64,000 bases of DNA from Phycisphaerales bacterium (GTDB lineage: Bacteria > Planctomycetota > Phycisphaerae > WQYP01): NCBI GenBank assembly GCA_027451365.1, contig DAIDJN010000073.1, positions 1 through 64,000 on the forward strand. Reading direction: 5' to 3'. This document shows, in pieces, positions 21,309 to 28,047 of this stretch (position 1 is the first letter of the stretch; every line of letters starts with the position of its first letter). Made by a program: the position numbers and the translations under genes. The notes beneath the pieces are model-generated. The model was not told the DNA's origin and made no database searches. It saw only the letters and a list, made by a program, of their open reading frames with translations.

Positions 21309-22931
21309 TCAGTTGTCGGGGTAACGGCTGCTCCGCACATCGGACCAATCAAGGCCAAATCGAAAAAGATATTTACGCAGACGGTCCGCGTCATTTGACA
21401 CCTTTTTCCTGGTGCGCGAGGCTGAATAAAGTCTTCGGCCGGCATCGGACAAGCTATCGGCCTGGCGGCATATTTCAATTACACCCCGCAACTGCAGACG
21501 ATCAAACAGATCAATGGCTTCAAGTTTTTCCGCCGGAAAAAACGATGCCAACAGATCGCGATTGGCGCATCCGTCTTCACCTTTGACGATCCACTGCTTT
21601 TCCAGTCGAAGAATTTCCTTTTCCACAATTTCCAGAGTGATTCGCCCGCCATCAGCGAGCGTCCCCATGCGATTGATGCTGGCATTCAAATCACGAAAAT
21701 TCCCCGCCCAAGCCCCGGCTGGGGATTTGGCAAAACTGATGAATCGCTGGCGAGCTTCCCTGCTGAATGTCACGTTATTGTTCTGGCGCAGGGCAAACTG
21801 ATCAAGTTCAAAGTCTATATTGGGTTCAATATCTTCAGGCCGCTGGCGAAGCGCTGGCAGACGGAAGGTCCACAAATTAATCCGCGAAAACAGATCTTCG
21901 CGAAAGCCGCCGGATTGGACGTGAGTCTGCAAATCCCGATTGGTGCCGGCAATAAGCTGGAAATCGCTTTTGGATTCTTCATCCGCGCCGACGGGCAAAA
22001 ATCGCTTTTCTTCCAGCGCGTGCAGCAGCATGGCTTGTTCGTCCGGGCCAAGCTCACCGATTTCGTCCAGAAATAATATGCCATTGTCCGCGGCGCGCAA
22101 CAAACCGGGTCGCGCAGACATGGCTCCCGTATACGCCCCTTTCACGTGGCCGAAAAGGGTGGACATGGCGGCATCGCCGCGCAATGTGGCACAGTTAATT
22201 TCCACGAAAGGTCCAGCGATTTGTCTGCGGCTTTTTTTAAGATCATAAATGCGCCGCGCCAGTTGTGATTTGCCAGCTCCGGTCGGTCCCATTAACAGGA
22301 GCGGGGCCTTGGAGGCAATGGCCACATGTTCGATCTCCTCCATCAGTTTATTGAAAGGAGCATTGAGGGTTTTTATTCCCCCTTTCAAAAAAGCCAGCCC
22401 CTCTTTCTTTTCCTGCTGGAATCGCGAGGCAATGCGATCGTAACGCGACAGGTCCAGATCAATAATCGAAAAAGTACCAGGATCTCCGGTGCGATGGCTG
22501 GAAGGCGGGGCTGTTTGCAGCAGTTTGCCGGGAAGATAATGGGCTTCAGTCAGAAGAAACAGACATATCTGAGCCACATGCGTGCCTGTACTTATGTGAA
22601 TGTAATATTCTTCATGTTGAGCATCAAAAGGATAAGCGCGGGCGAAATCATGCAGGGCGCTGTAGACCTCCTGAAAATCCCAAGGATCGGCTAATTCGCA
22701 CAAATGAGCGTTTACCTGCGTTTCCGGAGAAATACCCTGAATATCTTCCACAACCTGCGCGAAAAGTTTGCCAAATTTTTTCTGGGTTAACAGTTCAAGA
22801 CGATCCACCAGCAAATCTTCGTGTCGGCACAGCGAAACGGTTGGCCGCCAGCGCTCCCAACGTTCAGGGCCGCCCCCCGTGTCCAACACCGCGCCCAGAA
22901 AACCGATGACCACTGTCTTCTTCTTATTCAT
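21309..22931 (-). CDS. rtcR: RNA repair transcriptional activator RtcR (CARF + sigma54 AAA+)
   Basis: N-terminal RWERWRPTVSL, DPWDFQEVY, HISTGTHVAQIC; Walker A GPTGAGKS; GAYTGA; LFLDEIGE; C-terminal NDADRLRKYL. Confidence 0.96.
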   Translation of the reverse strand: MNKKKTVVIGFLGAVLDTGGGPERWERWRPTVSLCRHEDLLVDRLELLTQKKFGKLFAQVVEDIQGISPETQVNAHLCELADPWDFQEVYSALHDFARAYPFDAQHEEYYIHISTGTHVAQICLFLLTEAHYLPGKLLQTAPPSSHRTGDPGTFSIIDLDLSRYDRIASRFQQEKKEGLAFLKGGIKTLNAPFNKLMEEIEHVAIASKAPLLLMGPTGAGKSQLARRIYDLKKSRRQIAGPFVEINCATLRGDAAMSTLFGHVKGAYTGAMSARPGLLRAADNGILFLDEIGELGPDEQAMLLHALEEKRFLPVGADEESKSDFQLIAGTNRDLQTHVQSGGFREDLFSRINLWTFRLPALRQRPEDIEPNIDFELDQFALRQNNNVTFSREARQRFISFAKSPAGAWAGNFRDLNASINRMGTLADGGRITLEIVEKEILRLEKQWIVKGEDGCANRDLLASFFPAEKLEAIDLFDRLQLRGVIEICRQADSLSDAGRRLYSASRTRKKVSNDADRLRKYLFRFGLDWSDVRSSRYPDN

Positions 22932-23077: not shown

Positions 23078-23093
23078 TGGCATCGGTTGTGCT
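23078..23093 (+). promoter_or_regulatory. Sigma54 (-24/-12) promoter of the rsr-Y RNA-rtcBA operon
   Basis: TGGCATCGGTTGTGCT matches TGGCACG-N4-TTGCW with exact GG-N10-GC spacing; predicted +1 near 23104. Confidence 0.85.
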
Positions 23094-23200: not shown

Positions 23201-24769
23201 ATGGCCAACAAGACACTTTTTGAATCAACCATGGGCGCATTGATTCGGCCGACCGATGCACTGAACAGCGAAGGTTCACCGGCTTATGCATTTTCGCCCA
23301 AACAGATGCTGGCCCAATATGCCGCAACCGGCTGTATGAACGATACGTTTTATGCCACGGGTCAGGACCAACTGACGACGGTTCTGAAATTGTGCGCCGC
23401 GGTTGATCCGGAATTTATCGCCCGTACGGCGTTGTTCTGCAGAAGCCGCGGCCACATGAAAGATATGCCCGCACTGTTGTGCGCGATATTGTCTGTTCGC
23501 GGGCCGGGACTTTTGGCCGATATTTTCGACCGGGTGATTGATTCACCTAAAATGCTCCGCAACTTTGTGCAGATTATGCGATCCGGAACGGTTGGGCGGA
23601 AATCTTTGGGAACGCTTCCCAAGCGGCTCGTTGTGGCGTGGCTGGAAAGCCGCAGCGACGATTCCTTGTTTTGCGGCTCCGTCGGGCAGGACCCCTCGTT
23701 GGCGGATATTATTCGGATGGTTCACCCCAAGCCGGAAACGGCCTCTCGTAAAGCGATGTTCGGCTACCTGATCGGTCGCCCTTACACCGCCGCAGACCTG
23801 CCGACAATTGTTCAGGCCTATGAGGCGTTCAAGGCGGACCAGACTTCGGCAATGCCGGAGGTTCCGTTCCAGATGCTCACATCGCTGAAACTCTCCGATG
23901 CGCAATGGCGAGCCATTGCCGTGAGCGGATCCTGGCAGATGACGCGAATGAACCTGAACACCTTTGCCCGGCACAATGTGTTTGCCTGCGAACGGACGAC
24001 CGAGGCCATTGCACAGAAACTCCGTTCGCCCGAACTGATCGCCAAAGCTCGAGTGCTGCCATACCAGCTTATGGCGGCTTATACGGGCATCGGCCCCGAG
24101 GTTCCGGCCGTCGTACGCGAGGCCCTGCAGGATGCAATGGAAGCCGCGATTGACAATGTACCGGTCATCGACGGCAAGGTTTACATTTGTCCGGATATTT
24201 CACGGTCAATGCACTCGCCCATTACCGGTGTACGCACCGGGGGAACCACGACCGTGCGATGTGTGGACGTGGCGGCGTTAATTACCGCCGCCATTGTACG
24301 TAAAAATCCGCGATCCGATGTTCTGGCATTTGAAACCACCGTTGTGCCGGTTGACTACAACCCGCGCGACGCCGTGCTGACGAACGCTGGAAAATTTTCC
24401 AGTCTTCCCGCGGGCGGCACCAACTGCTCGGCACCGCTGGTGGAATTGAACCGCCGCAGCGCATCGGGCGATCTGGTAATCTATGTGTCGGACAACGAAA
24501 GCTGGATTGATTCGCCGCATTATGGCCGCTTTGGTGGAAGCCGCACTGAGACCATGAATCAGTGGGCAATTTTCAAGCGGCGTAACCCGGCGGCGAAGAT
24601 GGTCTGCATTGACCTGCAACCGAACGCCACGACACAGGGCGTGGAACGGGCTGACATTTTGAATATTGGCGGGTTTTCTGACCAGGTATTCGAAGTTATC
24701 ACAGCTTTTGTCGCCGGTACACTGGCCGCGGATCACTGGATTGGCGTTATCGACGCCGTAAGTTTGTAG
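23201..24769 (+). CDS. rsr: Ro60-related protein Rsr (TROVE + vWA domain)
   Basis: AGGAG SD before ATG 23201; LAQYAATGC, MKDMPALL, MLRNFVQIMRSG, RMNLNTFARH, vWA DISRSM, GGTNCS, VSDNESW, IGGFSD. Confidence 0.95.
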   Translation: MANKTLFESTMGALIRPTDALNSEGSPAYAFSPKQMLAQYAATGCMNDTFYATGQDQLTTVLKLCAAVDPEFIARTALFCRSRGHMKDMPALLCAILSVRGPGLLADIFDRVIDSPKMLRNFVQIMRSGTVGRKSLGTLPKRLVVAWLESRSDDSLFCGSVGQDPSLADIIRMVHPKPETASRKAMFGYLIGRPYTAADLPTIVQAYEAFKADQTSAMPEVPFQMLTSLKLSDAQWRAIAVSGSWQMTRMNLNTFARHNVFACERTTEAIAQKLRSPELIAKARVLPYQLMAAYTGIGPEVPAVVREALQDAMEAAIDNVPVIDGKVYICPDISRSMHSPITGVRTGGTTTVRCVDVAALITAAIVRKNPRSDVLAFETTVVPVDYNPRDAVLTNAGKFSSLPAGGTNCSAPLVELNRRSASGDLVIYVSDNESWIDSPHYGRFGGSRTETMNQWAIFKRRNPAAKMVCIDLQPNATTQGVERADILNIGGFSDQVFEVITAFVAGTLAADHWIGVIDAVSL

Positions 24770-24778
24770 AATTGTATC

Positions 24779-24862
24779 GCCAAGCCTGCGCAACGGAATG
24801 CCGATGGGATTACACACTGTCCTGTCATATCCCGCCGCTTTTGTCTGTTGCGCAGGATTGGC
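24779..24862 (+). ncRNA. Y-RNA-like element 1 (minimal, stem only)
   Basis: Outer stem GCCAA-G-CCTGCGCAACGGA / TCTGTTGCGCAGG-A-TTGGC; internal loop ATGCC / GCTTTTG; inner stem GATGGGAT / ATCCCGCC; no tRNA arms. Confidence 0.7.
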
Positions 24863-24938
24863 TTCCGGTTGTCCGCGTGCACGCCGGCCGGAAACGAACC
24901 TTGGTACCGGGTTGAAAACTGGAGATTAAAATGAACAG

Positions 24939-25063
24939 AGCAGCGGCGAATGCCGATGGAAGTACATTGGTAACCAGGAGGTTCGAATCCTGTCCCTCAT
25001 ACGTCGGCGACCAACCGGTCGCCCGACTATGGGAAAACTTCCATCATTTTTGTCGCCGTTGCT
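24939..25063 (+). ncRNA. Y-RNA-like element 2 (T-loop plus long hairpin, no D arm)
   Basis: Outer stem AGCAGCGGCGA / TCGCCGTTGCT; ATGCC / ATTTTTG; inner stem GATGGAAGT / ACTTCCATC; GGTTCGAATCC T-loop; long hairpin closed by GCGACC-AACC-GGTCGC. Confidence 0.78.
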
Positions 25064-25119
25064 TCATATACATGTTCGCCACTCATTGCTTTTCGAGTGT
25101 CGGATTGAATGGATCACTG

Positions 25120-25271
25120 GCGACAAATGCCGATGGAACTACAGATTCCCATTCTCGAGGCCGTGGGTTCGATTCCCACTCATTCCGGCAACCGGGCAGG
25201 TCCGAAAGGTCCGTCCGCGCCGGGGTGGTAGCTCAATGGTAGAGCACGCGTTTCATCACTTTTGTTGTCGC
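25120..25271 (+). ncRNA. YrlA-like Y RNA 3 with circularly permuted tRNA domain
   Basis: Outer stem GCGACAA / TTGTCGC; inner stem GATGGAAC / GTTTCATC; T arm GTGGG-TTCGATT-CCCAC, then a loop-closed acceptor stem TCATTCCGGC / GCCGGGGTGG, then D arm TA-GCTC-AATGGTA-GAGC (order T-acceptor-D). Confidence 0.88.
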
Positions 25272-25278
25272 TTTTGAA

Positions 25279-25420
25279 GGGTCGCAGCAGCGCGAATGCG
25301 GTCGGAATTACTTGTTCCGGGTTCGAGTCCCGGCGTTCTGAAAGCTCTGCTTCCGGGGCGTAGCTCAATGGTAGAGCGGTACCCACAATTTCGGCGAAAA
25401 TTGGTCGCCTGCTGCAGCCC
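25279..25420 (+). ncRNA. YrlA-like Y RNA 4 with circularly permuted tRNA domain
   Basis: Outer stem GCAGCAG-C-GCGA / TCGC-CTGCTGC; inner stem GTCGGAATT / AATTTCGGC; T arm CCGGG-TTCGAGT-CCCGG; acceptor CGTTCTG / CGGGGCG closed by a loop; D arm TA-GCTC-AATGGTA-GAGC; followed by T6. Confidence 0.88.
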
Positions 25421-25462
25421 TTTTTTAATTCTGTTACAGTGAATCTGACTTAAGGAGCACCC

Positions 25463-26974
25463 ATGGCCTTTGTTGAACAGACTCCACCTGTTAGCGATCC
25501 GTTCATTGCCACCGGCGAGGCGACGGCGATTCTGCCGGCGCGCGATTCGAAACAAAAACCGATCACCGTCATCGGCACGGCGGCCGTTCGTCAAACATTT
25601 GATGCCATGTGCCTGACTCAGGCGCTAAATTCACGTGGCGCACCGGGCGTAACCGACCTGGTGTTGAATCCTGATGCGCATTGCGGCTATGGCGCACCGG
25701 TAGGCTGCGTACTGGTGTCGCCTACCCATGTGTATCCTGGCCCGGTGGGCGTAGATATTAAGTGTTCTATGAGCCTTTTGCAGCTTGATCTTCCCGCGGA
25801 GGCAGTGGCAGATGTTCGAATCCGGCGGGCGTTGATTGACGCCATTGTCGAGCGCACACCAACCGGCGCGGGCAAAGGACAGCGATCGGCAAAAAAAGGT
25901 CGCCAAGTTTCCGAAGATGTCGGTGTGCTGGTTGCCACGCAGGGAGCGTCGGCGGCGGTGTGCGGTCGGCTGGGCATACCGGAAAGCTGGACGAATTATT
26001 GTGAAGATTCATTTCATTTGGGGCATGATGATACAGTGGATTCTTTGTCACAGCGGTTGGAGATTCTGCGTACTGGCCAGCTAAAGAACTTTGCGTCCAA
26101 AATCAGCCAGCTAGGATCTTATGGAGGCGGAAATCACTTTGGGGAATGCGAGATTGTACATATTTTGGATAACCCGCGGGCCAGAACGATTGCCGAGCAT
26201 TTCGGCCTGAAGGAAAACCATGTGGCGTTTCTTTCGCATTGCGGATCGCGCGGATTTGGATTTCAACTCGCCAATAACCAGTTTCGATCGCTGCAGAGCA
26301 AGTTCGCGCAGTGGAGTATTCCATTACCTGGAAACGACCGCGAATTGGTTTATGCGCCGCTGGGAACGCCCGAAGCGGATGCATATATAGACGACATGAG
26401 TCTTGGGGCTAATTTTGCCACTGTCAATCATCTGCTGATCAATGCCCTGGTTCTGGAGGCATTCCAGCAGGTATTGCCTGGAACCACTGGCACACTGGTT
26501 TATTTCATCAGTCACAATATTGCACGCCGCGAAATTGTGGATGGCCACCTCGCATGGGTTCACCGCAAAGGCGCCACGCGGGCTTTTCCGGCAGGCCATC
26601 CGGGATTGAAAGGAACCCGATATGCACAAACCGGCCACCCCATTTTGCTACCGGGCAATCCGCAAGCCGGCTCAGTGGTCATGGTGGCTGATCCAGAGGC
26701 CGCTAAAAGCTGTTACAGTGTAAACCACGGCGCGGGACGACAGATGGGTCGCAAGGCGGCCCTCCGTGCGCTTGACCAGCAAACGATTGATGAATCCTTC
26801 ACCGCCTGTGACATTTTAAGCAACTGCCGCAATTATCCGCGCGATGAAGCGCCGGCGGCCTACAAAAATTTTGACGATGTTCTGGACAGTGTTAAAGGAG
26901 CGGGACTGGCCAGCGAAGTAGCGCGGCTCAAGGCACGTTTTGTCATAAAAGATGCCGACAAAGCGGATGATTGA
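25463..26974 (+). CDS. rtcB: RNA ligase RtcB
   Basis: PDAHCGYGAPVG, VGVDIKC, GGGNHF.E, HCGSRG, SHN, HRKGAT, HGAGR, DEAPAAYK; AAGGAG SD. Confidence 0.93.
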   Translation: MAFVEQTPPVSDPFIATGEATAILPARDSKQKPITVIGTAAVRQTFDAMCLTQALNSRGAPGVTDLVLNPDAHCGYGAPVGCVLVSPTHVYPGPVGVDIKCSMSLLQLDLPAEAVADVRIRRALIDAIVERTPTGAGKGQRSAKKGRQVSEDVGVLVATQGASAAVCGRLGIPESWTNYCEDSFHLGHDDTVDSLSQRLEILRTGQLKNFASKISQLGSYGGGNHFGECEIVHILDNPRARTIAEHFGLKENHVAFLSHCGSRGFGFQLANNQFRSLQSKFAQWSIPLPGNDRELVYAPLGTPEADAYIDDMSLGANFATVNHLLINALVLEAFQQVLPGTTGTLVYFISHNIARREIVDGHLAWVHRKGATRAFPAGHPGLKGTRYAQTGHPILLPGNPQAGSVVMVADPEAAKSCYSVNHGAGRQMGRKAALRALDQQTIDESFTACDILSNCRNYPRDEAPAAYKNFDDVLDSVKGAGLASEVARLKARFVIKDADKADD

Positions 26975-27015
26975 ATCACCGGAGCCGCAGACATTCTGAA
27001 AATTCTGGAGTTTGG

Positions 27016-28047
27016 ATGATCACACTTGACGGATCCATGGGTGAAGGAGGCGGCCAGATATTACGTTCCGCACTGGCGCTTTCCATGGCTACCTCTTTGC
27101 CATTCCGCATCGAAAATATTCGTGCGGGAAGACCCAAACCCGGGCTTATGCGACAGCACCTTACCGCAGTTAGGGCCGCCATACAGATATGCGGCGCCAA
27201 GGCCAGCGGCGTGGAAATGGGCGCACAATGCGTGGAATTCCGCCCCGGGAACATACAACCCGGTCCATATCATTTCGCCGTCGGCACCGCCGGAAGTGCC
27301 ACGCTGGTACTACAAACCATTCTGCCCGCGTTGCTGCTTGCCAACGGCCGGTCCACGGTGGAATTGGAGGGCGGCACGCATAACCCTTATGCCCCACCGT
27401 TTGATTTTCTGGAGAAATGTTTTCTACCGGTCGTAAACGCCATGGGACCGCGCGTAGATGCTAAATTGGAACGAACGGGGTTTTATCCCGCAGGCGGCGG
27501 AAAATTTCACGTAACAATTGACCCGGTGAAAAAGCTCACCCCGATTCACTTCACCGAATTTGGGCAAATCGTTCGCCGATCCGGACGGGTACTGATCGCT
27601 GGTCTGCCGAACACGATTGCACAGCGTCAGTTGGAAGTTCTTGGCCGCCGCACTGGCTGGGATGCTTCCTGTTTTACGATCGAAAATCTTCCCGAACGCA
27701 CTGGTCCGGGAAATGCCGTGATTCTTGAGGTGCAAAGCGATCATATCACTGAAATTTTTACCGGTTTTGGCCAGAAGGGCCTTTCGTCGGAAGCAGTTAT
27801 TGAACAGGTCGTCAGCCAGATGCGCTCCTATATCATGGCGCAAGTACCCGTCGGACATTACCTCGCCGACCAGTTGCTGCTGCCAATGGCCCTGGCTGGT
27901 GGTGGCACCATTTTGACGCTTCCGCTTTCGCGCCATTCCAAAACCAATATAGAAGTCATTCAAAAATTTCTTGCAGTCCCCATACAGGTACTTGCGCCAC
28001 GGGATCGCATTGCATTGGTCGGCATTGGAACGCCGCCAGCTATTTGA
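27016..28047 (+). CDS. rtcA: RNA 3'-terminal phosphate cyclase
   Basis: LDGSMGEGGGQILRSALALS, PGLMRQHL, GTAGS, GFYPAGGG, LADQL, catalytic His in SRHSKTN; start ATG 27016 after GGAG. Confidence 0.95.
   Translation: MITLDGSMGEGGGQILRSALALSMATSLPFRIENIRAGRPKPGLMRQHLTAVRAAIQICGAKASGVEMGAQCVEFRPGNIQPGPYHFAVGTAGSATLVLQTILPALLLANGRSTVELEGGTHNPYAPPFDFLEKCFLPVVNAMGPRVDAKLERTGFYPAGGGKFHVTIDPVKKLTPIHFTEFGQIVRRSGRVLIAGLPNTIAQRQLEVLGRRTGWDASCFTIENLPERTGPGNAVILEVQSDHITEIFTGFGQKGLSSEAVIEQVVSQMRSYIMAQVPVGHYLADQLLLPMALAGGGTILTLPLSRHSKTNIEVIQKFLAVPIQVLAPRDRIALVGIGTPPAI

Follow-up and report, generated by a model that had tools for sequence, protein, structure and literature searches.

A gap of 693 bases between rsr, which encodes an orthologue of the Ro60 protein, and the RNA ligase gene rtcB raises the question of what lies between these genes in a Phycisphaerales bacterium (genome assembly GCA_027451365.1, 4.06 Mb), the source of the 64-kb stretch (contig DAIDJN010000073.1, positions 1 to 64,000) that we refer to as the window. 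Chen et al. 2014 (PMC4201824) reported that 254 bacteria and 22 phages have YrlA-like sequences close to rsr, and that Rsr binds the adjacently encoded Y RNAs YrlA and YrlB in Salmonella and Mycobacterium smegmatis; for the window, an earlier note had proposed that the gap holds four modular Y-RNA-like genes with different tRNA-like payloads. Our analysis makes it likely that the gap does hold four tandem, structurally distinct Y-RNA-like genes (E1 to E4, Table 1), which share one conserved handle, the predicted binding site of Rsr.

Four elements built on one handle

All four elements lie on the + strand, 10-650 nucleotides (nt) past the rsr stop codon, and so on the same strand and within the ~4 kb of rsr that Chen et al. 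2014 used to define YrlA. The 5' side of the handle common to all four consists of an outer stem, (G/A)A-ATGC-N, an 8-nt strand of the inner stem and TAC, and reads GGAATGCC-GATGGGAT-TAC in E1, CGAATGCC-GATGGAAG-TAC in E2, CAAATGCC-GATGGAAC-TAC in E3 and CGAATGCG-GTCGGAAT-TAC in E4. On the 3' side the complementary inner strand is followed by a linker of 7-9 nt ending in TTG and by the outer stem (ATCCCGCC-GCTTTTG-TCTGTT in E1, CTTCCATC-ATTTTTG-TCGCCG in E2, GTTTCATC-ACTTTTG-TTGTCG in E3 and ATTTCGGC-GAAAATTGG-TCGCCT in E4). Each element, folded alone, was predicted to form a stem, an internal loop and a second stem, with energies of -43.7, -62.7, -62.7 and -51.8 kcal/mol for E1 to E4, and the general shape of bacterial Y RNAs, a long stem that joins the 5' and 3' ends and is interrupted by an internal loop, in ~80-130 nt, is present throughout, E3 being longer than this range.

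The payloads carried on the handle are graded, and simple motifs for the T and D arms class E1 to E4 as '--', 'T-', 'TD' and 'TD'. E3 and E4 have the order T arm, closed acceptor-like stem and D arm that is described by Chen et al. 2014 and in the preprint of Wang et al. 2018 (10.1101/312249), while E2, with a T arm only, and E1, with neither arm, are not YrlA-type. The T-arm-like hairpin of E2 is GGTTCGAATCC, with one stem mismatch in the canonical register. The earlier note had placed four elements of this anatomy at 24779-25426 and had read their payloads as graded, and all were found in place; the 15-nt loop of E1, the T arm and long hairpin of E2, which has no D arm, and the full domains of E3 and E4 are borne out by the YrlA alignments and the arm classes. 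The letters that it listed as shared stand as well, but the TTG of E4 reads TTGG, the outer stem of E4 has irregular pairs and the inner stem of E1 contains one A-C mismatch.

Two covariance models were available for detecting such elements. Model R2 was built from 150 elements at 37 rsr loci of other genomes, none of them from the genome or family of the window, and it gave exactly four full-length matches in the 64 kb, which are E1 to E4, the one other match being a weak, partial tRNA match. The scores were 78.5 bits (E = 6.2e-19) for E3, 70.7 bits (7.5e-17) for E2, 69.4 bits (1.7e-16) for E4 and 37.0 bits (9.3e-08, at 24787-24854) for E1. Model R1, which was trained partly on window elements, scored E1 at 41.6 bits and, when run over the whole assembly, matched nothing but the four window elements. 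The Rfam models, applied at their gathering scores, reported nothing in the rsr-rtcB gap (none of the four elements). In E-value mode, the search with the YrlA model (RF02553) that the earlier note had suggested aligned positions 1-114 of 114 with both E4 (55.2 bits, E = 1.5e-11) and E3 (52.1 bits, E = 1.2e-10), matched E2 weakly (24.7 bits, E = 0.01) and left E1 without a YrlA or YrlB match at E<=10.

The shared letters taken alone are poor guides. The bare count of AATGC-N9-TAC was dropped as evidence, the pattern being no commoner across the genome than its reversed control (99 against 112 matches); only its clustering is informative, with four of the five matches in the window falling on one strand within 520 bases. 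A four-element array by chance is excluded.

Pairing of the handle was counted in two alignments. In alignment A1, which contains the four window elements and 26 from six genomes of the same family (30 in all, aligned with MAFFT from sequence only), 86.7% of the cells of the 19-pair handle pair, against 64.0% after shuffling (none of 500 shuffles reached the observed value) and 36-60% when the strands are slid, and both sides have changed in 131 cells. Alignment A2, made of 150 independent elements aligned to the model and thus leaning towards it, gave 88.3% against 62.4% shuffled and 36-56% slid, with double-sided change in 18 of the 19 pairs. The stem sequences thus differ while their pairing is kept, as the earlier note had claimed, and its reading of Y-RNA-like genes with one handle and different distal modules is supported by the comparisons as a whole (the YrlA alignments, the covariation and R2). 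One inner-stem pair in A2 is G-U in 112 of the 150 elements and two A-U pairs are nearly invariant; such conserved pairs are features that would be expected of a protein-binding site. All 13 core pairs are formed in 20 of the 30 A1 elements, compared with 70 of the 12,750 AATGC sites genome-wide (0.55%); E1 forms 12 of the 13 and E2 all 13. Our first stem parser, with its loose threshold of at least 11 of 13 pairs, was dropped as evidence, 40.7% of the 12,750 AATGC sites passing it; what was kept is the number of elements with all 13 pairs, the pairing figures from the MAFFT alignment and the matches of the independent model.

Arrays at other rsr loci

Absence of conservation or of covariation at related loci had been named in the earlier note as grounds for abandoning its proposal, and both were present. 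A scan for Rsr gave 80 loci, in Planctomycetota, Acidobacteriota, Verrucomicrobiota, Myxococcota, Rhodobacteraceae and others, and a search of these with R1, the kind of new model that the note had called for, gave 285 matches at E<=0.01, every one on the rsr strand. Four partial matches to the tRNA-like middle of the model only were left out, and of the remaining 281 full-length elements 274 lie downstream of rsr and seven upstream, the latter in four loci (L033, L045, L051 and L097). Elements equivalent to those of the window occupy this position in many phyla. The 80 loci comprise five with no element (in four of which the sequence ends <90 bases past rsr), seven with one, 11 with two, 11 with three, 27 with four, 11 with five, four with six, one with seven, two with eight and one with nine. 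Given that four is the modal number and that 46 of the 80 loci have four or more, the array in the window is not a special expansion, and the word 'expanded' in the earlier note has to be given up, close relatives having up to eight elements.

Within the family the gene is patchy, rsr being found in six of 36 other genomes, and it was not found in any of 24 genomes from the other families of the class. All six of these relatives have an array in the gap equivalent to that between rsr and rtcB, with 8, 8, 5 (plus one truncated), 5, 3 and 2 elements. The window elements are 0.67-0.72 identical to elements of other genomes and 0.37-0.64 identical to their own neighbours; the four are thus closer to their counterparts elsewhere than to one another, which makes them old paralogues and not the result of recent duplication. 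The acceptor-like stem of E3-type elements carries insertions of varying length, none in relative G035, ~28 nt in G025, 37 nt in the window (25186-25222) and ~150 nt of well-folded RNA in G016 (L012:2661-2944).

Part of this had been catalogued before. Table S1 of Chen et al. 2014 has up to three putative YrlA per rsr locus, for example in Rhodopirellula baltica and Pedosphaera parvula, and its multi-hit loci resemble the window in having several YrlA-like matches on the rsr strand within a few kb, planctomycetes included; the table holds matches to a YrlA model only, however, and handle-only elements and most T-only elements are not in it. Those authors expected further RNAs to escape bioinformatic searches, and the passages of their paper on which we draw do not discuss arrays or their order. 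We found no published statement that ordered arrays of about four are the norm, in a search that did not extend to the reviews of Sim and Wolin 2018 and Sim et al. 2020 (Annu Rev Microbiol). Across 13 related loci Rfam, at gathering score, called eight elements, against 69 called by the handle model. The YrlB model (RF02565) scored the first elements of relatives at 25.9-30.5 bits against a cut-off of 97; the likeness of E1 to YrlB is one of position and shape only.

By simple motifs the 281 elements divide into 118 with T and D arms, 61 with a T arm only, 98 with neither and four with a D arm only. Among the 68 loci with several elements a short one stands first in 46 and a full tRNA mimic last in 43; the order of the window ('--', 'T-', 'TD', 'TD') recurs in five loci (L025, L027 from Adhaeretor mobilis HG15A2, L028, L037 and L040) and the three-part order hairpin, T-only, full in six more. 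In alignment A3, which covers the T-only class in second position at 14 loci, the T stem covaries and the hairpin is variable.

These classes bear on the proposal that only E3 and E4 are working Y RNAs and that E1 and E2 are decaying duplicates which have lost their tRNA-like parts. Such decay would fit the missing Rfam match of E1, the 24.7 bits of E2 and its T-stem mismatch, and the existence in relatives of handle fragments without a 3' partner (L013 ~2743, L014rc ~2790). It would not lead one to expect, however, that handle-only and T-only elements should be recurrent classes of 98 and 61 members with a short element so often first, that hairpin, T-only, full, full and its three-part form should recur in five and six other loci, that the T stem of the second-position class should covary, or that the handles of E1 and E2 should pair at 12 and 13 of 13 positions and be found by the independent model at E = 9e-8 and 7.5e-17. 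Moreover, Chen et al. 2014 report that the Salmonella YrlB, a hairpin, and the M. smegmatis YrlB, which has a possible T arm, are both bound by Rsr, and with YrlA these give all three payload types of the window a published precedent. In M. smegmatis, as in the window, a full tRNA mimic is accompanied by a second Rsr-bound RNA with possibly a T arm only, the two being made there from one precursor, and the 7-bp acceptor-like stem that is linked there to RNase P cleavage of YrlA can be read from the sequence of E4. We hold decay of E1 and E2 to be very improbable; to judge by comparison of sequences, the two are not decayed copies, and short handle-only and T-arm-only classes recur in other phyla.

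As for the fragments themselves, 5' handle halves (CACGGAATGC...CTACAC) for which no 3' partner was detected occur at ~2725-2785 of L013 and, on the reverse strand, ~2770-2830 of L014, in both cases immediately before a complete element, and are probably remnants of lost array members.

Operon setting and neighbouring tRNA genes

The gene order, from Pfam matches and a pattern match (Table 1), is divergent rtcR, a sigma54-like box, rsr, the four-element array, rtcB and rtcA, and all the parts of an RtcR/sigma54-type RNA-repair operon are therefore present. The same order of divergent rtcR, sigma54-type promoter, rsr, Y RNAs, rtcB and rtcA is found in the rsr-yrlBA-rtcBA operon of Salmonella Typhimurium, where the short hairpin RNA also comes first and the tRNA-like one after it; that operon has two RNAs, whereas the window has four, among them a T-arm-only RNA as an additional type and a pair of full tRNA mimics. 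Of the 80 rsr loci, 64 gave a match to RtcR and 37 one to RtcB further downstream in the same orientation.

Table 1. Features of the rsr-rtcBA region, with positions in the window
Feature	Position	Strand	Basis or structure
rtcR, sigma54-dependent activator, divergent	21309..22931	-	Pfam RtcR 4.3e-83, Sigma54_activat 7.4e-49
sigma54-type promoter-like box TGGCAT-N6-TGC	23078..23092	+	pattern match, between rtcR and rsr
rsr (Ro60 orthologue)	23201..24769 (open reading frame open from 23087)	+	Pfam vWA_Ro60 4.2e-16, TROVE 9.1e-06
E1, handle-only Y-like RNA, YrlB-like architecture	24779..24862	+	long hairpin, 15-nt pyrimidine-rich loop; 84 nt
E2, T-arm-only Y-like RNA	24939..25063	+	handle, small hairpin, T-arm-like hairpin, long hairpin, no D arm; ~125 nt
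E3, YrlA-type Y-like RNA	25116..25275	+	handle, T arm, 9-bp acceptor-like stem with inserted hairpin, UA, D arm; ~160 nt
E4, YrlA-type Y-like RNA	25284..25415	+	handle (ATGCG variant), T arm, 7-bp acceptor-like stem with 4-bp extension, UA, D arm; ~132 nt
T6 run	25421..25426	+	5 bases 3' of the E4 outer stem
rtcB, RNA ligase	25463..26974	+	Pfam RtcB 2.2e-100
rtcA, RNA 3'-phosphate cyclase	26971..28047	+	Pfam RTC 1.5e-78, RTC_insert 2e-10

The protein encoded by rsr matches the structure of Deinococcus radiodurans Rsr (2NVO) at E = 4.1e-20 over residues 21-507, nearly its whole length. Given that the alignment with relatives begins only near residue 38 of the long open reading frame, the true start is probably the ATG at 23201, which stands behind AAGGAG, and the sigma54-like box then lies ~110 nt 5' of it. 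The pattern TGGCAT-N6-TGC has two matches in the window, a count that by itself is not enriched; at 10-95 nt upstream of rsr, however, it occurs in 28 of 74 related loci, against none of 64 control stretches 2 kb further upstream, and we infer that the box functions as a sigma54-type promoter. A protein-coding reading of the array was rejected, the four open reading frames that overlap it (82-179 amino acids) having no Pfam match at E<=0.01.

The elements might, on the other hand, act in cis, as folded barriers or processing sites that tune the rsr message against that of rtcBA, and not as free RNA partners of Rsr. Their position inside an operon agrees with this, as do the T6 run after E4 and the finding that simple scans, which are weak evidence, gave no sigma70-like promoter or terminator inside the array. 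In three bacteria, nevertheless, homologous RNAs build up as separate molecules bound to Rsr (PMC4201824), barriers would need no conserved AAUGC, UAC, UUG or G-U pair and no tRNA-like D and T arms, and T runs are no commoner after last than after internal elements (31 of 75 against 67 of 206), for which reason the T6 run was also rejected as a conserved mark of the array end. A purely cis role seems to us most improbable.

True tRNA genes accompany many of the related arrays. ARAGORN called 45 of them inside or beside Y-like arrays at 18 of 75 rsr loci (L032, L042, L051, L055, L059, L066, L067, L071, L073, L092, L095, L103, L104 and others), and in 33 of the 45 the last letter of the anticodon is G (Gln, Pro, Leu-CAG/GAG, Arg-ACG/CCG and His, which read CNN codons). 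The corresponding figures are 17 of 60 for the remaining tRNAs of these loci and 11 of 45 for the genome of the window (Fisher p = 5e-6); kin are not independent in this count, and the majority holds in 10 of 15 lineage groups. Four of the six family relatives have a tRNA-Gln(CTG) gene between the first and second elements (L012:2310-2381, L013:2324-2396, L008:2311-2382 and L014:6710-6781), an extra copy whose nearest other Gln-type tRNA is 81% identical over ~50 of 72 bases. The window has no tRNA between E1 and E2, and the tRNA-Gln(CTG) of its genome is on another contig; the 73-nt spacer there (24863-24937) was tried as a decayed tRNA-Gln and rejected, its local alignment score of 8.5 equalling the shuffle mean of 8.5. 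At some Myxococcota-type and Blastocatellia loci (L033, L051, L097, L082 and L078) rsr stands in or beside large arrays of tRNA genes, with 5-14 of these genes in the sequence retrieved, and in the first three of these Y-like elements lie upstream of rsr.

In a few cases tRNA calls and Y-like elements coincide. ARAGORN tRNAs (Gly-ACC, Ser-CGA and Leu-CAA) overlap an element at L016:6899-6971 (G012), L036:6679-6776 and L074:4205-4272; these could be Y RNAs whose parts follow the usual order of a tRNA, or the calls may be false. In the window the Rfam tRNA model gave a match at 25222-25340 (28.4 bits, cut-off 29) that takes its D arm from E3 and its T arm from E4; ARAGORN calls nothing there, and we rejected a tRNA gene and read the match as a by-product of homologous neighbours. 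Comparable junction matches exceed the cut-off in L034 (41.6 bits), L029 (38.9 bits) and L092 (37.1 bits). They fit the model, cited by Wang et al. 2018, that YrlA arose from dimeric tRNA transcripts, but may merely reflect homologous neighbours.

The same observations invite the proposal that the tRNA-like elements are mainly tRNA decoys, inhibitors of tRNA-cutting nucleases, or substrates or guides of RtcB, with Rsr binding secondary. The D and T arms of E3 and E4 are near-canonical, true tRNA genes stand within such arrays at 18 of 75 loci, and Hughes et al. 2020 (PMC7790460) float competitive inhibition of an anticodon nuclease by YrlA as a possibility. However, the elements have no anticodon loop, ARAGORN called no tRNA in the array region, and the proposal leaves unexplained both E1, which has no tRNA-like part, and the handle that is invariant across all four. 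We judge it improbable as the main function; it is compatible with binding of the elements by Rsr, and the two could coexist.

Proposed roles of the array

How the four RNAs might work with Rsr can be proposed by analogy with Salmonella, M. smegmatis and D. radiodurans. Damaged tRNA would activate RtcR (activation by tRNA fragments is reported in PMC7790460), and a single sigma54 transcript would then run across rsr, the array and rtcBA, from which nucleases would excise four RNAs. Each RNA would sit on Rsr via its handle, and the distal modules may gate Rsr or tether it to different partners, for example PNPase, to which a Y RNA tethers Rsr in D. radiodurans (PMC4201824), or tRNA-binding enzymes, so that several kinds of Rsr particle would be made at once during RNA damage. 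The analogies have their bounds: in M. smegmatis the RNAs are upstream of rsr and outside RtcR control (PMC4201824), and although D. radiodurans Yrn1/Yrn2 and vertebrate Y1-Y5 likewise offer several Y RNAs per species with a common Ro-binding stem and a differing distal module, their handle lineage and arrangement are other, and the vertebrate genes are separate Pol III units and not an operon array.

Several points weigh against four Rsr-bound RNAs with distinct modules. That different modules recruit different effectors is conjecture and the least secure step, and deletion of the T arm in D. radiodurans brought no visible change in complex assembly (PMC4201824). No element attains the YrlA gathering score of 69 bits, all four are below the YrlA and YrlB cut-offs, and E1 matches neither model; E3 and E4 are for this reason named YrlA-type and not Rfam-certified, while orthologous elements in relatives, at 77.2 and 74.3 bits, pass the 69-bit cut-off. 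The handle letters are nonetheless those of the YrlA consensus (cgaAUGC...CUAc / ...UuGucG). The published motif GNCGAAN0-1G is exact only in E2 (GGCGAATG), with seven of eight positions in E3 (GACAAATG) and E4 (CGCGAATG) and six of eight in E1 (ACGGAATG), and the departures fall at covarying stem positions. Finally, the A1 elements were picked by a pairing-seeking parser and R1 had window elements in its training set; given that 40.7% of random AATGC sites meet the parser's loose threshold, part of the pairing in A1 comes from selection.

A more ambitious proposal is that the array specifies a fixed, ordered Rsr team of a hairpin, a T-arm-only RNA and two full tRNA mimics, each with a separate job, and that with spare CNN-reading tRNAs, such as the arrays of relatives carry, and the ligase the operon would answer some nuclease that cuts this tRNA class. 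Separate jobs are suggested by the order, which among related operons is more frequent than any other single architecture and which planctomycetes of different orders have kept. We regard the proposal as tentative and, on balance, unlikely. In Salmonella the tRNAs cleaved alongside induction of the RNA-repair operon are the A36 class (PMC7790460), and if the proposal were true a nuclease against CNN-reader tRNAs would parallel this.

The array itself is real and well formed, and it is typical of a system already known. Work on bacterial Y RNAs has covered three species and two RNAs in each; the four distinct RNAs encoded here on one handle and in a repeatable order suggest that Rsr particles come in several defined kinds. 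The four-part layout is shared by cultured planctomycetes such as A. mobilis HG15A2, whose elements measure 68, 110, 202 and 135 nt; the locus of Lacipirellula limnantheis I41 (L029) has five elements. Given that Rfam at its gathering score calls none of the four genes here and eight against 69 in relatives, most such genes are left unmarked by standard annotation, and the locus adds to the case that ordered, multi-member Y RNA arrays are the rule and are under-annotated.

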